A stretch of 64,000 nucleotides of DNA from Promethearchaeia archaeon (GTDB taxonomy: Archaea; Asgardarchaeota; Lokiarchaeia; Sigyniarchaeales; SOKP01). The position numbers and the translations under genes were made by a program. The notes under the pieces were generated by a model. That model was not told the DNA's origin. It made no database searches and saw only the letters and a list, made by a program, of their open reading frames with translations. The stretch is taken from NCBI GenBank assembly GCA_029856155.1, contig JAHQWL010000052.1, forward strand, positions 1-64,000, given 5' to 3'. Numbering within the stretch: position 1 is the stretch's first letter; each line of letters begins with the position of its first letter. This document shows, piece after piece, positions 47,217 to 57,745 of this stretch.

Positions 47217-47891
47217 ATGGAACAGGTTGAGTTTGAAAAAAATATTAAAATTGATAAGAAAGATGCCTTAATTATTGTAGATATGCAATACGATTTCATC
47301 CCCGGAGGATCATTACCAGTAAAGGAAGGAGATCTTATTATAGAGGGGATTAATGAAATTACTAAATTATTTAAAAAAAAGACAGCACAGGTGGTGTTAA
47401 CTCAAGACTGGCATCCACATAATCATTTATCTTTTGCTAGTAGGCATCCTGGGAAATCTCCAGGGGATGAATATAAGTCTAAGGATGGATCTATAGGCCC
47501 AGTATTATGGCCGGATCATTGTGTACAAGGCACTAAAGGAGCAAAATTTCATAAAGATTTAAAGGTTGATTTGGCTGATAAAATATTTAAAAAAGGGATG
47601 AATCCAAGTGTTGATAGTTATTCTGGATTCCAAGATAATGACAAGAAATCTGAAACAGGTCTAAGAGAATATTTAAATTCAAAAAAAATCAAACAAATTT
47701 TTGTATGTGGTTTAGCTTTAGATTATTGTTGCTATTATACAGCTTTGGATGGTTTTAACTTTGGTTATAAAGTTTATTTTTTAGTAGATCTGACTAGAGG
47801 AGTTGATTTACCAGAAGGAAATATAAAAACAGCTCTAGAAACTATGAAAAAGACGGGAATTAAATTCGTAAACAATGAGAGTTTTAAGTAA
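47217..47891 (+). CDS. pncA: Nicotinamidase/pyrazinamidase
   Basis: VDMQYDF, QDWHP, WPDHCV, KG...DSYSGF, GLALDYC. Confidence 0.95.
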   Translation: MEQVEFEKNIKIDKKDALIIVDMQYDFIPGGSLPVKEGDLIIEGINEITKLFKKKTAQVVLTQDWHPHNHLSFASRHPGKSPGDEYKSKDGSIGPVLWPDHCVQGTKGAKFHKDLKVDLADKIFKKGMNPSVDSYSGFQDNDKKSETGLREYLNSKKIKQIFVCGLALDYCCYYTALDGFNFGYKVYFLVDLTRGVDLPEGNIKTALETMKKTGIKFVNNESFK

Positions 47892-47930
47892 TAAAAATAG
47901 TTATTTTACATCTATCTTTTCATCCATGTA

Positions 47931-48410
47931 ATGAAAAATAAATTTCATTATAAATCAATATTAATAGTTTGTAGTGTAAACACGGCTAGAAGTTGTATGG
48001 CTGAGGGATTTTTAAAAGATTTTTTCTTAAAATGTAACTTAAATATTAAAGTAAAGTCATGTGGTATATCATCTCATGCTAGAGATGGTATGTTGATATC
48101 AATGGATGCAAGAATGGCAATGGAAGAGGTAGGAATTAAATTATCAGAAAATTCTTTCTCAATCGATTTGAAGAAGCATCCTGAAATTCTTGAAGATGTT
48201 GATTTGATTCTGACATTGACGGGTAAACATAAAGAAGAAATCATTGAATTTTTTAATATAGATAGCAAAGGAATATTAACAATCAAGGAATTTGCGGGAG
48301 AAAATGGTGATATTGAAGATCCGTCAATGAAAGAACTTGAGGGATTTCGAGAAGCTCGTAATGAGATTATTGAATATTTAATGAAAGGATTAAATAGATT
48401 TAAGTTTTGA
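47931..48410 (+). CDS. Low-molecular-weight phosphatase (LMW-PTP/ArsC fold)
   Basis: VCSVNTARS P-loop, DIEDP. Confidence 0.88.
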   Translation: MKNKFHYKSILIVCSVNTARSCMAEGFLKDFFLKCNLNIKVKSCGISSHARDGMLISMDARMAMEEVGIKLSENSFSIDLKKHPEILEDVDLILTLTGKHKEEIIEFFNIDSKGILTIKEFAGENGDIEDPSMKELEGFREARNEIIEYLMKGLNRFKF

Positions 48411-48413
48411 AAA

Positions 48414-49259
48414 ATGATTGAATATATAATTATTGCACTATTACAAGGCATTTTTGAATGGCTCCCTATATCATCAAGTGGTCAAACATTTGTTATAGCC
48501 ATGAATTTATTTGGTATTTCTGCCGAAGAGGCATACAGCCTTGCAATTTGGTTACATTTAGGCACAACTTTAGCTGTACTCTTAAAATTTAGAACTGATT
48601 TTATTAAAATTTTTAAAAGTTTTTTACCAAAAACATATACCGTGGAAGAAATCGACATTAAAAAAAGAAATTGGTTAGTTTATGCTACGATAGGAACAGC
48701 AATTACAGCTTTACCACTCTATTTTATATTCAGAATAATTATTTCAGGAGCATTTAGCGCTTTCCAAGGAGATTTAATAACACTAGTTATTTCAGGTTTA
48801 TTAATTATTACTGGTATTATTTTACTTAAAACACGAAAAATCTATGGAAAAAGTACTCTTGAAGATGCTCCCCAAAATGAGATCACTAAAGATAGTTTTT
48901 TAGCAGGCCTAGTTCAGGGAGTCTCAATTTTACCGGGAATTTCCCGCTCAGGAGTTACTGTATCATCAATCTTATTAGAAAATTACAATCAAGGCAATGC
49001 ATTAAGTTTAAGCTTCTTAATGTCCGTACCAGTTGCTATTGCATCAATAATAGTTGATATTATTTTTGGAGAAGGTTTAGTTTTCGGATTAATAGATCCA
49101 TTTTTAATCATTTTACTGACTATTATAAGTTTTTTGATAGGTTATTTAACTATTGAAATTTTACTCCGTGTAGCTCAGAAAATTAGTTTTGGGTATTTTT
49201 GTATTGCTTATGGAGTTATCGCGTATTTAATAATAATTCCCTTTTTAGTAAATCCTTAA
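48414..49259 (+). CDS. uppP: Undecaprenyl(polyprenyl)-diphosphate phosphatase
   Basis: QGIFEWLPISSSG, LHLGT, PGISRSG, SFLMSVP. Confidence 0.93.
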   Translation: MIEYIIIALLQGIFEWLPISSSGQTFVIAMNLFGISAEEAYSLAIWLHLGTTLAVLLKFRTDFIKIFKSFLPKTYTVEEIDIKKRNWLVYATIGTAITALPLYFIFRIIISGAFSAFQGDLITLVISGLLIITGIILLKTRKIYGKSTLEDAPQNEITKDSFLAGLVQGVSILPGISRSGVTVSSILLENYNQGNALSLSFLMSVPVAIASIIVDIIFGEGLVFGLIDPFLIILLTIISFLIGYLTIEILLRVAQKISFGYFCIAYGVIAYLIIIPFLVNP

Positions 49260-50161
49260 GGATTTAAAGCATAGTTTTTAAGATAATTTATTAACTCGTT
49301 TTCAATATTCGGAATTCCTCTAAAACTTGGGAAGTCATTTAAATCAATAAGGTAAAATTTATCTTTGTCTATAGGTCTTACTAAATCAAAACCAAAAATC
49401 TTAAGATTCAACTCATTAGATAAAATCCTTGATAAATTATAGATTTCTTTTGTAATTTTAAATTCTTCTCGTTCAATCAAGCTGACATCAATATTTTCGG
49501 GTTTTTCTCTTAAATATTTATAAATTGGGTTTTCTCTTTTAATACCAAAAACTTTATCTCCAATTACATATATTTTTCGCTCAATTCCATCACATTCTAT
49601 AAATTCTTGGACATATAAGTCGTAAAATAAAAACTCTTTATACTTTTCACAGAATTTATCAACTTCATTGATTTCTTGAACAAGGAAATTAAATCTATTA
49701 TATTTATCATGTTGATAATGACTTTTGATAACGATTGGTAATTTTTTTAAAGCCCATTCTTTAAACTTATTTACATCAGATAAAGATTGGTTCCATGAAT
49801 TAGGAATTAAAAATTTTTCTAAATTTTCTTCATGATTTTTAAACGCTTTTCTTAAAGCATAATCGAGAGCAATCTTATTCTTGCACGTTAAAATAGCATC
49901 GATATCATGCAATGTCTGGATTTTATAAATTTTGGCGAAGTGTAATAAATCAATAGAACACTCATTTCTTACTTTTACAATTATTTTATCTGCATTCTTA
50001 ATGAATTGAGGCATTTCTGAAAGGCAAAAATAGTCTTTTGTTGGATCATGAAGCTTTAAATTAAACTCCTTCATACTTTTTAGTTTATTAATAACTTTTT
50101 TTATAACATCATGGTTTTTCACTGCTGAAAAGACTACTACTTTTTTGACCATATTAATCAA
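49256..50161 (-). CDS. ATP-grasp protein, ITPK1 (inositol trisphosphate 5/6-kinase)-like #1
   Basis: YVQEFI...RKIYVIG, IFGFDLV, IDLNDFPSF. Confidence 0.8.
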   Translation of the reverse strand: MINMVKKVVVFSAVKNHDVIKKVINKLKSMKEFNLKLHDPTKDYFCLSEMPQFIKNADKIIVKVRNECSIDLLHFAKIYKIQTLHDIDAILTCKNKIALDYALRKAFKNHEENLEKFLIPNSWNQSLSDVNKFKEWALKKLPIVIKSHYQHDKYNRFNFLVQEINEVDKFCEKYKEFLFYDLYVQEFIECDGIERKIYVIGDKVFGIKRENPIYKYLREKPENIDVSLIEREEFKITKEIYNLSRILSNELNLKIFGFDLVRPIDKDKFYLIDLNDFPSFRGIPNIENELINYLKNYALNP

Positions 50162-50251
50162 TAAAAAGGAGATATCTATTCTTAAATTTATTTAGTTTAA
50201 GATCTTCTTCTATAAATAATACTTTATCCAAATTCTCATATACCATTTATA

Positions 50252-52687
50252 TTAATTAGAGATTAAAACTTCTCTTCTACTAACTTTATCAAACTTTAAA
50301 TTTACTTCTATTTTATTAACTTCCTTAATATAATTCCATGAACTTATTAACTTATTATCAACTTGAATTGAAGTTGGTCTTTTTTCTGAATAAATTAATA
50401 ATTTAATGTCTGTATCTTCTATATTCTCTGCTATAAAATTTAAAGAATTCTTAGTGCCATCAACATGTATTATTAATTTTCCTGAGCAAGTTATAAATTT
50501 ATCAGGACACCCAATTAAAGCCATTTTATTTACTGTAATAGGGCAAATTACATAATATTTGTAATCATATCTTCTTAGTCGCCCTATTTCGATACAATCG
50601 TCAAATTTAATTCGATTTAAATTACCAGAATGATAATCGTATATAATATAATCATTTTTCTCATATCCAAGGTCTTCCAATGTAAAAAAAGTTTCTTTAA
50701 CTCTTCTTGGCCAGATATTGGAAACTAATATATATCTCCATGTTAAATTATTTATTTTAGTGTAACTATCACAAATATAGTACTTTTTATGTTTCTTAAA
50801 CATTAAATCATTTGCAGTTAAGGGTTTTTCAGGTTTCAGTAATAACCCATCATCCCTGCATGTTTTGTTTAGAAGCGGCCAATTGACATTTTCTTTTTTA
50901 TCTCCCGGAGCAACAATTCCTGCATTTAAGATTTGATAAAGACATTTAAAATTAGGATATCTTTCTCCAAATGGTCTTATTTTTACATTTTCCATTGATC
51001 TTGAACGAAATATGTCTGGATGTGAGTTAATACCTATAGCATTAAAAAGTATATTTGTTTGAGTAGAGTGAATATATCTATAAGTTAAAGGCCATCTTTG
51101 ATTATAATCTCCTGAACACCGAGAGATATTAATGTTTGAATGTTTTATACTATATAATAAGATTCCAGGAGTCTGCATACAATAGAAAATATCAACTCCA
51201 TTTTCCTTGGCAGCAGTAGCCATATTGTTTAACCAATCTTCCTGACTATTAAATTCTTCAGTTAAAATAGGCATACTAGCAATTTGATTTTTCATCCAAT
51301 CTTGTTCATAAACTAAAATCCCGCTTTCTTTAGCATGTTTCATCAACCATTGCCAGAATTCTTTTTTAAGGGGAATTGCGTGATTTTTATACGTTTCAAA
51401 CTCAAATTCTTCAATATATGGGGATCTTGCATCCCAACGACGACTATGAGCAGTAATAGGTTTTTGAAATTTATCACGATAAAATGTTTTTAAGCTTGTA
51501 GTAAAATTTTTAGGATCAACCTCCCACCGAAACGTATTACCATATAACCCACCTCCCATTAGTCGAACTAATGGTCTAAATATTGTTGTAAAAGTTTTGT
51601 TTGTATGTTTTAGGTACCACCAACTATCAAAATTATAATATCTTATTGGAATGTTATACTTATCAAAATATTCCTTGATTTCCACCATTGTATCCTCATA
51701 ATTCATTCCCTTTTCTGTTCTATAATAGTAATAACCACCATTATTTGTCCAGAAACCCAAATAGGATGTTACAATATTCGCATAAAGACTTTTACGCTTA
51801 GAATCGTGATATTTTAATAATATATCACCTAAACGTTCTATAGATTGGTTAATCCCTACTCCAAAAAGTAGAATAAATTTCTGTGAAAAATTTTTTGGTA
51901 TTTCTTTAATTTTCCCTTGAATACCACAGCTTATTCTATTATTTTTATCCTTTGAGATTACTGTATTTAAAAAACCATCTAATGGCGATAATACAAAACA
52001 GTTCAAATCATCATCATAAAAAACTACAGGTGCAGAGGTTGTGCTAATCTTTTTTGAGGGAGGACAAAATATTTTATTTCTATAGGTAAATATTTTAGTA
52101 TTAGGGCTCATATTCATCAATGAAGGAAAGGAAGTAATAATTTTCGAATACTCATCTGAAAATGTGTTATTTAATCCATCTGGGATTGAAAGCTCAAAAA
52201 TAATAAAACCTTTTGTGTTATAGTGTTTAATTAAGGCATCTACGATTCTACCTTCATTTTCTAATTGATATTCAATGTCAATAGATATATACTTCCCTAA
52301 TTTATCAGATCCATCATTTTTATCGACAGAAATTAACTTAAGTGTTTTTGATTGACTTTTGGAAGAAATATAATTGGAGTATTCGTTAAAGTTGTGTCTA
52401 ATTTTTATAATTCCATTTACTAGTTGTCTATTATCACCAAATGAAATTGAATAAGTGCCTCGATTCTTATCAAAATCCAATTGACCTATGTTATTTTGAA
52501 TTGGAAGTTGTATTGGCTTGGTTTTTTTCTTGAAATCTTTCGGATTATATATATATGTAGCGTTAAATTTTGGAGAAACAAAGAGATTAAAAAACCAAGG
52601 TAAGAGTAAATATACTAATGTGAAAAATAATATTAAGGTAAAAAGAATAAGAAGAATTAAGTTCAAGAGATACATATTAATTTCCAA
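50252..52687 (-). CDS. Membrane-anchored glycoside hydrolase-like protein (GH-D clan-like TIM barrel)
   Basis: N-terminal TM; FDSWWY, YEQDW, YCM, RCSGDY, CRDDGLLLKP. Confidence 0.65.
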   Translation of the reverse strand: MEINMYLLNLILLILFTLILFFTLVYLLLPWFFNLFVSPKFNATYIYNPKDFKKKTKPIQLPIQNNIGQLDFDKNRGTYSISFGDNRQLVNGIIKIRHNFNEYSNYISSKSQSKTLKLISVDKNDGSDKLGKYISIDIEYQLENEGRIVDALIKHYNTKGFIIFELSIPDGLNNTFSDEYSKIITSFPSLMNMSPNTKIFTYRNKIFCPPSKKISTTSAPVVFYDDDLNCFVLSPLDGFLNTVISKDKNNRISCGIQGKIKEIPKNFSQKFILLFGVGINQSIERLGDILLKYHDSKRKSLYANIVTSYLGFWTNNGGYYYYRTEKGMNYEDTMVEIKEYFDKYNIPIRYYNFDSWWYLKHTNKTFTTIFRPLVRLMGGGLYGNTFRWEVDPKNFTTSLKTFYRDKFQKPITAHSRRWDARSPYIEEFEFETYKNHAIPLKKEFWQWLMKHAKESGILVYEQDWMKNQIASMPILTEEFNSQEDWLNNMATAAKENGVDIFYCMQTPGILLYSIKHSNINISRCSGDYNQRWPLTYRYIHSTQTNILFNAIGINSHPDIFRSRSMENVKIRPFGERYPNFKCLYQILNAGIVAPGDKKENVNWPLLNKTCRDDGLLLKPEKPLTANDLMFKKHKKYYICDSYTKINNLTWRYILVSNIWPRRVKETFFTLEDLGYEKNDYIIYDYHSGNLNRIKFDDCIEIGRLRRYDYKYYVICPITVNKMALIGCPDKFITCSGKLIIHVDGTKNSLNFIAENIEDTDIKLLIYSEKRPTSIQVDNKLISSWNYIKEVNKIEVNLKFDKVSRREVLISN

Positions 52688-52826
52688 ACAACACTTTATT
52701 ATTTATAATTTTTCGCCTCCTCATAGCCATTAAAGTAAGAAATTTCTAATTTCACATAAATAGCTATCAAATCTTAATGGTTTTTTAAAATCATTTAAAT
52801 ATAATCATTTTATTATACAAAATATC

Positions 52827-53921
52827 ATGGCGAAAAATTTTATTAATGTTGCTATAGTTGGAGTCGGTGACGTGGCATCCGCTCTTGTACAGGGTGTTGA
52901 AAACTACAAGAAAAATCCAGAAAGAACAATAGGGATACTTCCAGAAATTACTCAATATAGTATAAATGATATTAATTTCATTTTAGGAATTGATGTTAAT
53001 TCAAATAAAGTCGGAAAAGATTTGAGTGAAGCGATTTTTGCAGAACCAAATTGTAATATGAGACTTTTTGAGCCTAGTTATTTAAATGCTCCTGTAATAA
53101 AAGGTCCAATAATGGATGGATTAGACAGCAATATTAAAAACATAATACCCGTAGATCTTAATCAAAACCCTGTTGATGTTACTAATGAAATAAAAAATAG
53201 AAATACAGATGTTACTATAATCCTGCTTCCAACAGGATCGCATGAAGCTGTAAAATTTTATGCTATGAGTGCGCTTGAAGCAGGATCATGTGTTATAAAT
53301 GGAATGCCTTCACACGTGGTTAAAGATTCCGAAATTGTTAAAAAAGCTGAAGAAAAAGGTCTCTCATTAATGGGAGACGATGTAAAATCCCAGATTGGAG
53401 CTACAATCATCCATAGAGCCTTAGCTAATCTCTTTCCAATGCGAGGTGCTATATTAGATAAAACAATTCAACTAGATTGGGGGGGTTCCAGCGATTTTTG
53501 TAATTTATTAACATCTATGCAAGACGGAAGATTAAGATATGAGCAAGGAAAACGACAATCAAAAACTGAGTCTGTAATTGCCAATCTCCAAAATAGAGAT
53601 ACAGTTAATTGCCAAATTTCTGCTGTAGATTATATCCCCTTCCTAAGAAATCAAAAAGAAGCGTATATGAGATTGGAAGGAAGAGTCTTTGGAGGTGCAC
53701 CCGTTAGAGTCGATATTACTATGTTTGTAGAAGATGGCAATAATTCAGCGGGTGTTATAGTAGATTGCATTAGAATTAGTAAAATTGCGAAGGATAGAAA
53801 AATTAAAGGTATTCTGCAATCGGCGTGTTCTTTTTTTGCGAAACATCCTCCAGAACAATTAGATGATTATATTGCCAAAAAGAGACTTATAGAGTTTATA
53901 GAAAATAAACGAGAGCGATAA
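52827..53921 (+). CDS. ino1: myo-inositol-1-phosphate synthase
   Basis: AIVGVGDVASALVQG, GDDVKSQIGAT..H, SKT, NSAGV. Confidence 0.94.
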   Translation: MAKNFINVAIVGVGDVASALVQGVENYKKNPERTIGILPEITQYSINDINFILGIDVNSNKVGKDLSEAIFAEPNCNMRLFEPSYLNAPVIKGPIMDGLDSNIKNIIPVDLNQNPVDVTNEIKNRNTDVTIILLPTGSHEAVKFYAMSALEAGSCVINGMPSHVVKDSEIVKKAEEKGLSLMGDDVKSQIGATIIHRALANLFPMRGAILDKTIQLDWGGSSDFCNLLTSMQDGRLRYEQGKRQSKTESVIANLQNRDTVNCQISAVDYIPFLRNQKEAYMRLEGRVFGGAPVRVDITMFVEDGNNSAGVIVDCIRISKIAKDRKIKGILQSACSFFAKHPPEQLDDYIAKKRLIEFIENKRER

Positions 53922-53949
53922 GTAGTTTATATGCTATGAATAAACTACT
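53921..53949. terminator. Hairpin between convergent genes
   Basis: AGTAGTTTAT-N9-ATAAACTACT. Confidence 0.5.
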
Positions 53950-53959
53950 ATCTCAAGTT

Positions 53960-54874
53960 TTAACCTCTAACTGAAGCACGTGTTTTATAGATTTGTTGTC
54001 GTAATAGTAAAGTATTGTATATATAATCTGATATTAGACTCACTGCTTCAGGAATGCTTTTAAAACTTGGAAAATCATTAATATCTATAATATATGGATT
54101 TCCTTCATTTGTTAATATGTAATCAATACCAAAAATTGAGAGTCCCATTTTTCTACCCAATCGTAATATTCGTCTCTTTAATTGTTTGTCAATTGGTACA
54201 CGAATATGAATTAGTTCTAAGGGAGATAGATTTTCTTTTTGTCGCAATCGATTATGGGAAGTTATTGAAACTGTCCATCGACCAATAATGTATATTTTGT
54301 AGATAATATCGAATTTGCCTAAATATTCTTGAAAAAATAACTCATTTTCCTTAAATCCTTTCGTTAATTCTTTAAAATCATATGAATTTTTAGCTATACC
54401 GATAATTCTATCATCTCTTGGCAAGTTTGGAATATTATGCCTATCCAATTTAATCACTATTTTAGTACCATTAGAACAAGCTTCAAAGGCTTCATTAAAA
54501 GAGTAAAAATTACGAGGAAAATATATTTTCTTACATTTTTGTTCAACATTTCTAAAGGTATCTCTTCTACTTTCACATGTCTGAACTGCATCTAAACTAT
54601 TTAAAAGAGGGATATGAGGCGTTATTTCTCTAACTGTTTTGTAAATTTCTTGATTATCTTTTTCAGATAACAATTTGACAATTATAAATGAAATAGGGTA
54701 TTTTTTAATTTGTTTCTTAAAATGTTTAACACTAAATATATTAGAATCTTTTTTTAAAAGATTAATTATCGAGATATTATAGTTCTTATTAAAGAACTTT
54801 TTGATCTCTTCAAAAATTTCGAGATCGCGATTACAAATAGAGCCTATATAGATTCTACTAAACTTATTTGACAC
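53960..54874 (-). CDS. ATP-grasp protein, ITPK1-like #2
   Basis: FFQEYL...YKIYIIG, IFGIDYI, IDINDFPSF. Confidence 0.8.
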   Translation of the reverse strand: MSNKFSRIYIGSICNRDLEIFEEIKKFFNKNYNISIINLLKKDSNIFSVKHFKKQIKKYPISFIIVKLLSEKDNQEIYKTVREITPHIPLLNSLDAVQTCESRRDTFRNVEQKCKKIYFPRNFYSFNEAFEACSNGTKIVIKLDRHNIPNLPRDDRIIGIAKNSYDFKELTKGFKENELFFQEYLGKFDIIYKIYIIGRWTVSITSHNRLRQKENLSPLELIHIRVPIDKQLKRRILRLGRKMGLSIFGIDYILTNEGNPYIIDINDFPSFKSIPEAVSLISDYIYNTLLLRQQIYKTRASVRG

Positions 54875-55113
54875 GTATAAAACCCTATTAATTTGATAAA
54901 TTATGAGTTAATTATGGTATATAAATATATTTATTATTTAGTATTTTAAGGGGTGACTATAGAAAAAAGTCTCGAAGTTTTAAAGATCCCATTTTCTGGA
55001 CTCTATGCTAAAAGGTTTAAAATTTAATTTTAATTGTATTTATATTATATATTTTTTTTATTTAATATTAAAGAGAAAAACCATTTTCTTTAAAAAAGGC
55101 TCTTAAGGTAAAT

Positions 55114-55932
55114 TTGTTGAAAAAAATAGGAATAATTATTGATAAATATCATTTAAAGTATAAAGTGACAGATTTCCTAAAATATCTAAAGTCTAAAGCA
55201 GATGTAATAATATATATTGAAGAAAATTTTCTTTTAAATAGTGAGAATATAAACTTCGATGAAGATTTATTCTTTCTTAAGGCGAAAGGAGATTTAGTAT
55301 TAACTTTTGCTAAATCTCTTGAAGATTGTACTTCGATTCCAGTAATAAACTCTTATAAAGGCACTTGGTTAGCAATTAATAGGTTTTTAAATAGCGTTTA
55401 TTTAAAAAAGGCAGGTATCCCTATTCCTGATTTTTCTTTAAATCCTAAAGGAATTATTCCACCTTTCAGGGATTATATTATAAAAAATATTATAGATCAA
55501 AAAAATTATAAATTTAAACCAGTAGTTCATAAAGAAAATGGACAATTAAGAGTAGCTGATGAGAGAGCCTTAAATGAAGTTGATAAGACTGATCCAAAAT
55601 ATAATTATCTATATTATCAGAAATTTATCAAAAGTAAATGGGAATATAAGATCTACGGGATTGGGGATGAAATATACTTTTTTAAACAATTACCTATACT
55701 TGTTAATCCCAATAAGATGGAATCGAGAAGAGAAATTGATGAAATTTCTGAATTAAAAGAATATTGTTATAAAGCAATGGAAGTAATGGATTTAAAATTA
55801 ACTTCATTAGATTTTTTAAAATCAAAAGAGCAATTCTTTCTAACTGATATAAATTGTACTCCAAATTTTAATTACATTAAAGATGGTCATAAAATTGTGG
55901 CTGATTTTTTATTAAAACAAGCAAAAAAATGA
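55114..55932 (+). CDS. ATP-grasp protein, ITPK1-like #3
   Basis: YYQKFI...YKIYGIG, SLDFL, TDINCTPNF. Confidence 0.75.
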   Translation: MLKKIGIIIDKYHLKYKVTDFLKYLKSKADVIIYIEENFLLNSENINFDEDLFFLKAKGDLVLTFAKSLEDCTSIPVINSYKGTWLAINRFLNSVYLKKAGIPIPDFSLNPKGIIPPFRDYIIKNIIDQKNYKFKPVVHKENGQLRVADERALNEVDKTDPKYNYLYYQKFIKSKWEYKIYGIGDEIYFFKQLPILVNPNKMESRREIDEISELKEYCYKAMEVMDLKLTSLDFLKSKEQFFLTDINCTPNFNYIKDGHKIVADFLLKQAKK

Positions 55933-55946
55933 TGGATTAAAGGAAA

Positions 55947-56750
55947 ATGAATATTGGAATTTTATCAAAAAGGAAAACTATGATGGCAAAAAAGTTAAAA
56001 GATTGCTTACAAAATAAAGGATATACGGTTTCTATTTACACATTAGAGAATTTGATTATTAATGAAACTCTTCTAAATAATGATTTATTCATATTAAAAT
56101 CAAAAAGTCTTATTTTTTTATATGCAGGTTTTTTTTTGGAAGCAAATAACATTCCAGTAATACCAAAACCTCAATTATCATTTTTACAGAAAAATCGAAT
56201 ACAATCACATTTCTTAATGAAAAGGATAGGTTTAATAACTCCAGACATATTTTTAGGTACTGCTGATACATTTAAGAATCAATTAGATTTAAAGGATTTT
56301 CCGTTTATTTTAAAGCCAATCATGGGTTCAGGCAGTAAAGGAATCAGAATTATTAGATCATACAAAGATTTAACATCAGAAAATAATTCAATATTATACT
56401 TAGAAAGGTATATTGAAGGTATTCATTATAATGTATATTTTATTGATAATGAAATCTGTACTTTAATTAAACCTCCATTATCAGATGAACATGTTGATAT
56501 GAAAAAAATTGAAACTCCAGATGATATAAGAGATGTAATTAAAAAATGGAAGGATTATTTTAACGGAGATCTATTATTCGGACATTTAGATATTGTTCGA
56601 GAAGAAGCTAGCAATAAATTATATGTTGTAGATCCAGGAAGTTTTCCTGAGTTCACCAATTGGAAGTGTAAAATTTCACCCGTCGAAAGTATATGCAATC
56701 TAATAATAAATAAGTATGAGAAATTACACAAAAATCAAAATAATATTTAA
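55947..56750 (+). CDS. ATP-grasp protein #4 (divergent; RimK/ITPK1-related)
   Basis: PFILKPIMGSGSKGI, LERYIEG, GHLDIV, VDPGSFPEF. Confidence 0.75.
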   Translation: MNIGILSKRKTMMAKKLKDCLQNKGYTVSIYTLENLIINETLLNNDLFILKSKSLIFLYAGFFLEANNIPVIPKPQLSFLQKNRIQSHFLMKRIGLITPDIFLGTADTFKNQLDLKDFPFILKPIMGSGSKGIRIIRSYKDLTSENNSILYLERYIEGIHYNVYFIDNEICTLIKPPLSDEHVDMKKIETPDDIRDVIKKWKDYFNGDLLFGHLDIVREEASNKLYVVDPGSFPEFTNWKCKISPVESICNLIINKYEKLHKNQNNI

Positions 56751-56776
56751 TTTTTTTACATTATTATACATTTAAA

Positions 56777-57745
56777 ATGAGTACGCAAGAACAATTAGAA
56801 AAATCCAAGATTTATGGAAAAAAACAAAAAGTACGATTATACAAGATAAAACACTTCATTTTTGATTTTGGGGGCGTTTTGATTGAAAAGACCTTTGTTT
56901 TAAAGAATTTACTTGATATGATCGAATCAGATTTAAAGATTTCAATTCCCCGTGACGAAAACTCATATAGTAGAAAAATTAAAAGACATCTAAGCTCTGG
57001 AATAATTTCTACTCAGGAATTTTTACAGAAAATTTTTGAAAAATACTATTATCCTTTTCAAAAAAGTGATGGAGCATCATCCCCCAACAAAGTGGATGTA
57101 GAATATTATACTGAGCTTTGGTTAGATTTATATTCCCAAGTAACAAATATATCATCAGAAATGGCAGAAATAATAGAACGCTTACATCAAGCAGATTACA
57201 CGGTAAGTTTAATGTCAAATACCCATGATGTCCATGCAAAATCGAACTATTTAAAAGGATTCTATGATATTTTCGATAATATTTTCCTATCAAATGAAAT
57301 CGGTTATATTAAACCCGATATGGACAAATATAAATATGTTTTATCAAAATTAGATACAAGTCCAAAAAAATGTGTCTTTATCGATGATAAAATTCAGAAT
57401 TTAGTTCCAGCTCGAGATCTAGGAATTATAGTAATTAGATTTGAGTCATTTGAGAAATTTAAAAAGCAATTGCGCGAATTAGGAGTAGGTAATATTAGTA
57501 AGAATCTTCGCCATAAAATAAAAAAGAAATATACGCAATATAAAAAGACTAAAAAGGAGTATAAAAAAGCTAAAATGGAATACAAAAAAGCAAAAAATGA
57601 GTATCTTAAAAAGAAAGGGAAATCCTTAAAACGGAAAATGGAATACCAACAAAAACATGCTAAATATCATAAGAAAAAAGCTGAATATAAGAAAGAGAAG
57701 GAGAAAAAAAAACAAGACCTAATAACTAAAATCCGAGTTACATAA
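56777..57745 (+). CDS. HAD-superfamily phosphatase with Lys-rich C-terminal tail
   Basis: FDFGGVL, MSNT, KPD, FIDD; ~80-aa K/Y-rich tail. Confidence 0.9.
   Translation: MSTQEQLEKSKIYGKKQKVRLYKIKHFIFDFGGVLIEKTFVLKNLLDMIESDLKISIPRDENSYSRKIKRHLSSGIISTQEFLQKIFEKYYYPFQKSDGASSPNKVDVEYYTELWLDLYSQVTNISSEMAEIIERLHQADYTVSLMSNTHDVHAKSNYLKGFYDIFDNIFLSNEIGYIKPDMDKYKYVLSKLDTSPKKCVFIDDKIQNLVPARDLGIIVIRFESFEKFKKQLRELGVGNISKNLRHKIKKKYTQYKKTKKEYKKAKMEYKKAKNEYLKKKGKSLKRKMEYQQKHAKYHKKKAEYKKEKEKKKQDLITKIRVT

Follow-up and report, generated by a model that had tools for sequence, protein, structure and literature searches.

A further copy of the Lokiarchaeal IPS–ITPK gene cluster in a Promethearchaeial genome and its accompanying ATP-grasp pair and phosphatase gene

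Soluble inositol polyphosphates are regarded as a hallmark of eukaryotes, and the Lokiarchaeal homologues of ITPK1 are the main argument for a pre-eukaryotic pathway. Four such homologues of Lokiarchaeum, LcIKA–LcIKD, were described by Desfougeres et al. (2019, PNAS, PMC6900528); according to the main text of that paper, they form two pairs flanking two inositol-3-phosphate synthase (IPS) genes, their active sites were modelled, and LcIKC partly restored inositol hexakisphosphate (InsP6) in plc1-delta yeast. The same point is restated in a 2021 review and a 2026 preprint. Here we describe a related locus in the genome of a Promethearchaeia archaeon (assembly GCA_029856155.1, contig JAHQWL010000052.1). 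The stretch analysed, referred to below as the window, comprises 64,000 nucleotides (positions 1 to 64,000 of the forward strand), and the whole region examined lies at 49256–57745 of the window. It contains seven open reading frames (ORFs): an ino1 gene, four genes encoding ATP-grasp proteins (A, B, C, and D), a HAD phosphatase gene, and gene X, where A, B, C, D, and X are labels for this analysis. An initial annotation of the window had placed ino1 among four ATP-grasp genes and had referred to ITPK1 homologues reported in Asgard archaea; the seven ORFs bear out the former, and the main text of PMC6900528 the latter. It had also supposed that the whole unit may be undescribed. This does not hold, since the IPS–ITPK core (A–IPS–B) was already published in 2019, and the present locus is another genome's copy.

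As in the Lokiarchaeum loci, an ITPK1 homologue is located on either side of the IPS gene. The difference is that the window has one A/B pair together with C, D, and HAD, and the latter three genes are unmentioned in the main text of PMC6900528. Two contigs from the Loki's Castle metagenome encode A-type proteins that are 74% and 68% identical to A. Both show the gene order BacA (undecaprenyl-diphosphatase)–A–ino1–B–C–D; one contig has a HAD gene call, and the second ends within the gene beyond D. Given that each Loki's Castle contig has a single A/B pair, the published two pairs would most simply correspond to two A/B pairs from two strains. Unlike these contigs, the window's genus has X between A and ino1.

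We consider it fairly probable that the locus is a Lokiarchaeal (Promethearchaeial) copy of the IPS–ITPK cluster, in which a dedicated synthase, the kinases A and B, the C/D pair, and the HAD phosphatase act on soluble inositol phosphates. The dedicated ino1 paralogue would make inositol 3-phosphate (Ins(3)P) from glucose-6-phosphate, as its family membership suggests, and the housekeeping ino1, apart from the cluster copy, would serve inositol lipids and solutes. B, located in the block, and A, the fixed neighbour of BacA, would further phosphorylate the soluble inositol phosphate, an activity suggested by the published finding that one homologue from Lokiarchaeum gave partial rescue. C and D are probably a pseudo-symmetric heterodimer, in which C would contribute the complete D-x-N metal site and D would be a degenerate D-x-G partner. 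We would guess that the C/D pair also acts on inositol phosphate, a function that we favour only slightly over that of a ligase. HAD, which has D-x-G in its motif I and a conserved polybasic tail that would suit polyanionic substrates, would remove phosphate again.

Judging by Pfam PF05770, profile comparison, and the phylogenetic tree, A (49256–50161, minus strand, 301 amino acids, aa) and the divergent B (53960–54874, minus strand, 304 aa, convergent with ino1) are ITPK1-family proteins. They score 49.3 and 35.7 bits against PF05770, respectively, both exceeding the gathering cut-off of 23, and they are the only two matches to this family in the whole genome (4.1 Mb, 97% complete). A search of the PDB with the A profile gave ITPK1 structures with values ranging from 8e-11 to 2e-9, against 0.026 for RimK, and the best PDB matches of B are human ITPK1 structures (7e-6). 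In a profile–profile comparison (hhalign), each family was set against two references, 25 ITPK1 sequences of eukaryotes and 30 RimK sequences from the window's order. A matched eukaryotic ITPK1 at 2.4e-28 and RimK at 3e-17, and B matched them at 1.7e-19 and 1.4e-9, so that both are nearer to ITPK1 by about 10 orders of magnitude. The alignment of A with eukaryotic ITPK1 comprises 272 columns (query 10–299), and the N-terminal part is thus covered. An exhaustive search with the A profile returned relatives outside the orthologues, and nearly all of them match PF05770 (49 of 50 in one set, 42 of 43 in the other); the ITPK1 N-domain PF17927 was found in 22 of the 43 longer relatives. The closest kin of A outside its orthologues are proteins of 303–333 aa with an N-terminus like FITxxPxHxTD (P0226, P0230, P0237, P0240, P0247, P0253, P0263, and P0268), which match A at 4e-36 in hhalign and cluster with it in the tree.

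Eukaryotic ITPK1 (PF05770 and PF17927; PDB 2Q7D/2QB5, 1Z2N, 7TN5, and 8OXE) shares with A and B the ATP-grasp fold, the D-x-N-x-F-P metal motif, and the Q-E-F hinge, and A and B have no glycine-rich loop. In a residue mapping derived from the profile alignment and not from a structure, every ITPK1 residue checked has an equivalent in A: K59, K157, H167, Q188, K199, R212, D281, D295, and N297 correspond to K63, K146, H151, Q185, K196, R209, D259, D273, and N275. In B, K67, K142, H146, Q182, K193, D251, D264, and N266 are conserved, and the R212 equivalent is displaced to H207/R209. H167, K199, and R212 are the inositol-phosphate contact residues named in the main text of PMC6900528. In this mapping, their putative equivalents are H151/K196/R209 in A and H146/K193 with a shifted Arg in B; C has K179 only (K191/Q192 are near), and in D the positions of the Lys and the Arg are taken by N162 and K175, respectively. 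The metal ligands D281/D295/N297 correspond to D259/D273/N275 in A, D251/D264/N266 in B, and D233/D245/N247 in C, and they are invariant in each family; D keeps D215 and D229, and its third position is G231. The differences from eukaryotic ITPK1 are the size of A and B (about 300 aa), the shifted Arg of B, and the pre-ATP-grasp N-domain PF17927, which Pfam did not detect in A, B, C, or D. In addition, the HMMER match of A and B is limited to the C-terminal third, and the full-length relation is seen only in the profile–profile alignment. An internal stop in B of the locus L012 was rejected as the gene's own stop at the end of an over-long alignment.

The initial annotation had called all four ATP-grasp proteins ITPK1-like. 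Sequence comparisons indicate that only A and B are clearly so. When the four families were assigned by profile comparison, A and B grouped with ITPK1, as had been proposed, whereas C and D fell on the RimK side: hhalign gave 6e-9 with eukaryotic ITPK1 versus 4.5e-15 with RimK for C, and 5e-11 versus 6e-17 for D, the model of which is most like ArgX/LysX. A careful maximum-likelihood tree separates eukaryotic ITPK1, A, B, and A-like proteins from RimK, C, and D (ultrafast bootstrap, UFBoot, 97; SH-aLRT 94); we rely on this tree, as a quick tree missed a better topology. C and D thus lean to the RimK side and do not appear to be ITPK1 orthologues, the placement of C not being firm.

The motifs on which the first assignment relied can all be found in the translations: the C-terminal motifs are DLNDFPSF in A, DINDFPSF in B, DINCTPNF in C, and DPGSFPEF in D, and A, B, and C also share the Q-x-F/Y...KIY.IG stretch, at the place of which D has ERYIEGIHYNVYFID. 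The rule that RimK ligases have E-x-N and ITPK1 kinases D-x-N also holds in the reference sets gathered. The motif pattern caught 23 of the 30 RimK sequences of the order, all with Glu, the remaining seven being six EVN and one EVT; it caught 24 of the 25 eukaryotic ITPK1 sequences, all with Asp. E-x-N is absent from all four proteins of the locus: D-x-N takes its place in the first three (A–C) and D-x-G in D. The absence of the Asn from the fourth paralogue was recognised correctly, D-x-G being found in 16 of 16 aligned D orthologues. However, C has D-x-N and yet its profile is nearer to RimK, so D-x-N alone is insufficient for classification, naming by this motif is unreliable, and "four ITPK1-like kinases" overcalls the family. 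The RimK glycine loop K-P...G-S-x-G-x-G is full in D (KPIMGSGSKG), reduced in C (KFKPVVHKENG), and absent from A and B. None of A–D reaches the RimK family cut-offs (C scores 13 bits against PF08443, with a cut-off of 21; TIGR00768 gives 17–36 bits, with a cut-off of 143).

C (55114–55932, plus strand, 272 aa) has an intact D-x-N metal site and an ambiguous affinity. The window copy has no Pfam match above the cut-off, and the single sequence has no match in the PDB. Among 20 C orthologues, a RimK match was found in 16 (best 4e-6), Ddl_C in 16, and PF05770 in seven (best 1e-3). The profile of C matches ArgX in the PDB at 2e-4 and ITPK1 at 0.096. In structural comparisons of the C model (predicted local distance difference test, pLDDT, 83.5) using Foldseek and VIA-align, the Z scores are 20.6 for LysX, 20.0 for RimK, 19.4 for PPIP5K2, and 18.5 for ZmITPK1; given that LysX, RimK, PPIP5K2, and ITPK1 lie within two Z units or so, the fold of C does not separate kinase from ligase. 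Residues Q169, K179 (the ITPK1 K199 equivalent), D233, D245, and N247 are invariant in C. D (55947–56750, plus strand, 267 aa) is RimK/LysX-like, with Gly replacing the metal-binding Asn. Its Pfam match is ATP-grasp_3, shared by 15 of 16 orthologues; PF05770 is not matched by the window copy and is matched by three of the 16 orthologues (best 1e-4). The D model (pLDDT 92.6) has ArgX/LysX as its best structural match (TM 0.80, E 4e-17). D229-P-G231 is invariant, with G231 in 16 of 16 orthologues, and N162 replaces the K199 equivalent. Internal stops in D of L031 and L040 were rejected as the genes' own stops ending over-long alignments, and nothing informative emerged from the gene contexts of two small prokaryotic proteins related to C and D.

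C and D are adjacent and co-directional, and they were found together in every locus examined. Their complex was predicted with an ipSAE of 0.89 (0.88–0.90 in separate runs) versus 0.00 for the best of three controls; at least 87% of the contacts are common to the runs, and the partner pLDDT is at least 87. In the benchmark, 58 of 80 solved complexes attained the mark used for pairing, as did 2 of 110 mismatched pairs. No description of the C/D pair was found, and this conserved pair may be part of what is new at the locus.

Two further readings of the C/D pair, both rather unlikely in our estimation, lie on either side of this point. According to the first, C/D is a new heterodimeric ATP-grasp inositol phosphate kinase, with C as the catalytic D-x-N subunit and D as the degenerate D-x-G one, that arose on the RimK side independently of ITPK1 and supplies ring positions or pyrophosphates beyond the reach of ITPK1; combined with the dedicated synthase and the polybasic-tailed phosphatase, this would give a self-contained archaeal route to highly phosphorylated inositols without IPK, IPK1, and PPIP5K. 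A known ATP-grasp kinase of inositol phosphates is the PPIP5K/Vip1/Asp1 kinase domain (inositol pyrophosphate kinases; PDB 3T9B, 9GR8, and 8E1I), which ranks among the best structural matches of C and also matches D. The differences are that the sequence match concerns the generic fold only, C/D has no histidine-phosphatase domain, and the structural scores fail to separate these kinases from the ligases.

According to the second, C and D would be true RimK/LysX-type ligases, acting through an acyl-phosphate and then an amide or ester; the product of the block would be an amino-acid conjugate or solute linked to inositol or a sugar, or else a modified carrier protein, HAD would be an Ins(3)P phosphatase, and the kinases would be B (and A) only. 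The RimK/LysX/ArgX alpha-L-glutamate and carrier-protein ligases (PF08443; PDB 3VPB, 5K2M, and 4IWX) are indeed the best profile and fold match of C and D, as the hhalign values, the tree (97/94), and the TM of D indicate. In addition, the best NCBIfam and PDB sequence matches of C are MptN, RimK, and ArgX, D carries the KP...GSxGxG loop, and the predicted C–D interface is homodimer-like. However, all NCBIfam scores are far under the cut-offs, and E-x-N, present in 29 of the 30 RimK sequences of the order (the 30th has EVT), is found in neither C (D-x-N) nor D (D-x-G). C is without the full glycine loop and keeps K179, the equivalent of ITPK1 K199. Among the loci inspected, the block has no conserved gene for a carrier protein or for a pathway supplying an amino-acid substrate. 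A separate ordinary RimK gene is present in the genome.

The reading closest to the initial annotation, in which all four ATP-grasp proteins are ITPK1-like kinases of differing regiospecificity that convert Ins(3)P to InsP6, HAD reverses the process, and a glycosidase (X) belongs to the unit, is improbable. The four paralogues are mutually related (hhalign A–B 3e-20, A–C 9e-15, A–D 1e-8), three of the four keep D-x-N, a tree with C on the ITPK1 side is not rejected, and no gene of the IPK family, which might supply other positions, was found in the genome. On the other hand, C and D fail the ITPK1 Pfam and profile tests, and D has neither the Asn metal ligand nor the K199 equivalent. As for X, it has an N-terminal membrane anchor, it is missing from this slot in 8 of 20 species of the genus and in the other sampled genera, and its homologues elsewhere are not near ino1.

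The synthase of the cluster copy is encoded by ino1 at 52827–53921 (plus strand, 364 aa), a myo-inositol-3-phosphate synthase paralogue. It matches PF01658 with 71.7 bits (cut-off 27) and TIGR03450 with 302 bits, under the equivalog cut-off of 638. The housekeeping ino1 is located on contig C71 (L051:4919–9009), has an ORF of 348 aa, and matches PF01658 with 122–124 bits. The identity of the two proteins is 37%; the SKTE, D-Y-x-P, VED-x-NSAG, and KHPP stretches align between them, and QLNTGGNTDF of the housekeeping protein is QLDWGGSSDF in the cluster protein. By its sequence, the cluster ino1 is a divergent second paralogue; as a dedicated synthase, it may be part of what is new. The housekeeping gene adjoins an NTP-transferase (nucleotidyltransferase) gene; a CDP-alcohol phosphatidyltransferase gene is about 1.4 kb off, beyond the TBP gene, and a PAP2 phosphatase gene is at about 3 kb. 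The contig C71 locus looks like a classical archaeal inositol lipid/solute locus separate from the cluster. An IMPase gene is located elsewhere in the genome. The genome search found no IPK family gene; IPK1 was not found either, but the control genomes also gave none, which leaves this negative result without weight.

HAD (56777–57745, plus strand, 322 aa) is a predicted HAD-IA phosphatase that reaches the family scores of PF00702 (52 bits) and PF13419 (40 bits). Its nearest NCBIfam model is TIGR02247 (81 bits, under the cut-off), followed by the glucose-1-phosphatase PRK09456. Motif I, FDFGGV, contains D30-F-G32, that is, D-x-G and not D-x-D, and is invariant in 14 orthologues; the YihX glucose-1-phosphatase of E. 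coli, whose NCBIfam model is the second-best match just named, likewise has D-x-G. The C-terminal tail of 85 aa (window 57488–57745) consists of Lys and Arg to 40–50% and has EYKKAKK-like repeats, and its length and composition are conserved in four genera. The HAD gene is missing from two block-carrying loci (L033 and L145). This polybasic-tailed phosphatase may also be part of what is new.

The distribution was surveyed in 400 Asgard genomes for PF05770, in 135 genomes of the window's family for C and the cluster ino1, and in 20 sampled species of its genus for the gene arrangement. PF05770 was found in 122 of the 400 genomes, all from the window's order (118 of 134 genomes of its own family and 3 of 14 of a second family). 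All 20 sampled species of the genus have the arrangement, as do several other genera. Genome-wide there are only the two PF05770 genes and one ordinary RimK gene (single copy, on the separate contig C26, by six-frame search); this and the conservation in all 20 species argue that four ATP-grasp paralogues around ino1 are not a chance arrangement. The block ino1–B–C–D, usually with HAD, has the character of an accessory module that is either complete or missing within one family: it occurs as a unit in about six genera, its genes are adjacent in 26 of 26 inspected loci that have them, and genera that keep this adjacency have proteins only 55–80% identical. C was detected in 102 and the cluster-type ino1 in 103 of the 135 family genomes, and their patterns across genera are almost identical; 98 genomes have the two genes together, 28 have neither of them, and the nine discordant genomes are all draft assemblies in block-carrying genera. 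A is always beside BacA across genera, including those without the ino1 block, where A is next to the FKBP gene. As regards the synteny check that had been proposed, ino1–B–C–D is conserved across genera of the family; X is not part of it. That the genes are mere neighbours without shared function, their ATP-grasp proteins acting on unrelated substrates, is very improbable, for although adjacency within the syntenic genus is uninformative and A remains where the block is absent, ino1–B–C–D is gained and lost as a block across genera at 55–80% protein identity, the cluster ino1 is a dedicated second paralogue, and the genes C, D, and HAD run in one direction, separated by 14–26 bp.

A scan of species genomes for C outside Asgard archaea returned Promethearchaeial contigs only and one mis-binned contig. 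The latter, L145 (DATKTW010000070.1), is a 35-kb contig labelled 'Candidatus Nanopelagicaceae bacterium' with the order BacA–A–MFS–ino1–B–C–D–FKBP–radical-SAM over a 12.5-kb stretch of 31% GC. Given this GC content and the full synteny with the Loki locus, the contig is almost certainly archaeal and was mis-binned into a metagenome-assembled genome (MAG) of a bacterium. One genus in the genome collection bears submitter labels of five Asgard phyla (Hod-, Hermod-, Thor-, and Odinarchaeota, and Promethearchaeota), which makes the taxon names of MAG records unfit for inferring distribution.

Several points weigh against the IPS–ITPK reading of the locus. The published InsP6 rescue is weak and concerns one homologue only, as given in the main text of PMC6900528. 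The Pfam match of A and B spans only the last 60–65 model positions. The product of the cluster ino1 is uncertain, since the conserved GGN is changed to GGS. When C was forced to the ITPK1 side, the approximately unbiased (AU) test did not reject this placement (p 0.80; the cost is about 1.7 log-likelihood units versus the careful tree), so the tree position of C is only a lean. The predicted C–D interface uses equivalent segments of both chains, like the solved RimK/LysX homodimers; this likeness to ATP-grasp homodimers alone may explain the prediction, and homodimers fit too, which makes the pairing result weak. Synteny within the genus extends to the entire neighbourhood (BacA, FKBP, and the radical-SAM gene included), which leaves gene adjacency at this level with little weight. 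Finally, the family genomes are close kin, and the co-occurrence of the cluster ino1 with C rests on few independent gains and losses.

The locus adds no new principle to the argument for a pre-eukaryotic pathway, but sharpens it. The kinases appear as part of a larger unit with its own divergent synthase, an extra ATP-grasp pair, and, at most loci, a polybasic-tailed phosphatase. Among the 400 Asgard genomes, this unit is accessory and confined to one family of one order, which bears on its use as evidence about the archaeal ancestor of eukaryotes. The third point is the caution about motif-based naming given above. If C/D acts on inositol phosphates, it would be a new enzyme class for inositol phosphate chemistry.

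X (50252–52687, minus strand, 811 aa) is a membrane protein with a long N-terminal hydrophobic segment as its anchor. Neither Pfam, NCBIfam, nor PDB sequence searches gave a match, nor did Pfam on 30 homologues or the profile against the PDB; its approximately 90 homologues are all annotated as hypothetical and belong to no Pfam family. Language-model (Atlas) features are 0.95–0.97 similar to the Raffinose_syn, Melibiase, and GH31 clusters, which can serve as a lead only. The motifs D354-S-W-W, Y-E-Q-D463-W, and R523...D527-Y are invariant, and we take them to resemble the catalytic motifs of GH-D. X may thus have a glycosidase fold of the alpha-galactosidase/raffinose-synthase clan (GH-D; GH27/31/36). 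The glycosidase had been counted as a member of the unit, but X is a variable passenger outside it: of the 20 species of the genus, 12 have X between A and ino1, whereas it is absent from this slot in the other eight (one of which, L018, keeps a partial MFS gene there) and in every other sampled genus. Three of its distant homologues were inspected, and none has an ino1 or ATP-grasp neighbour.

In other genera (L028–L036, L040, and L041; for example, L032:4015–9162), the slot (window 50162–52826) contains an MFS_2 sugar-type transporter gene adjoining A, often accompanied by a zinc alcohol/glucose-dehydrogenase-like gene and by the gene of a conserved 936-aa protein without Pfam or PDB matches. 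The transporter stays next to A even without the ino1 block. In two loci of one genus, the slot has a GH2 glycosidase and a URO-D-like gene. Given the transporter, dehydrogenase, and GH2 contents, the slot seems to gather carbohydrate-related genes. Extra insertions of 5–6.7 kb within the A–X–ino1 stretch were found in two species of the genus, at L006:5342–12035 and L019:2554–7641, and this stretch can therefore be regarded as an insertion hot spot. The L006 insert includes a 795-aa protein without a family match and a leucine-rich repeat (LRR) protein. The 795-aa protein and the 936-aa protein of other genera were considered as relatives of X and rejected, being unrelated to it and without a family match.

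Two intergenic regions of the locus are divergent. The one between X and ino1 (52688–52826) has a conserved A/T-rich block with a TATA-like ATTTAAA upstream of ino1 (28 loci). The other, between B and C–D–HAD (54875–55113), has the conserved TATA-like blocks TATATAAAT and ATTTAAAT near its two ends (26 loci). Neither a specific operator upstream of ino1 nor one shared by both regions was found, only generic TATA-like boxes. C, D, and HAD have the same direction, with a gap of 14 bp between C and D and of 26 bp between D and HAD.

Upstream of A, at 47217–49259 of the window, an isochorismatase-family gene, a low-molecular-weight phosphotyrosine phosphatase gene, and BacA can be noted. Their order is identical across all sampled genera, and the 3' ends of BacA and A overlap by 4 bp.

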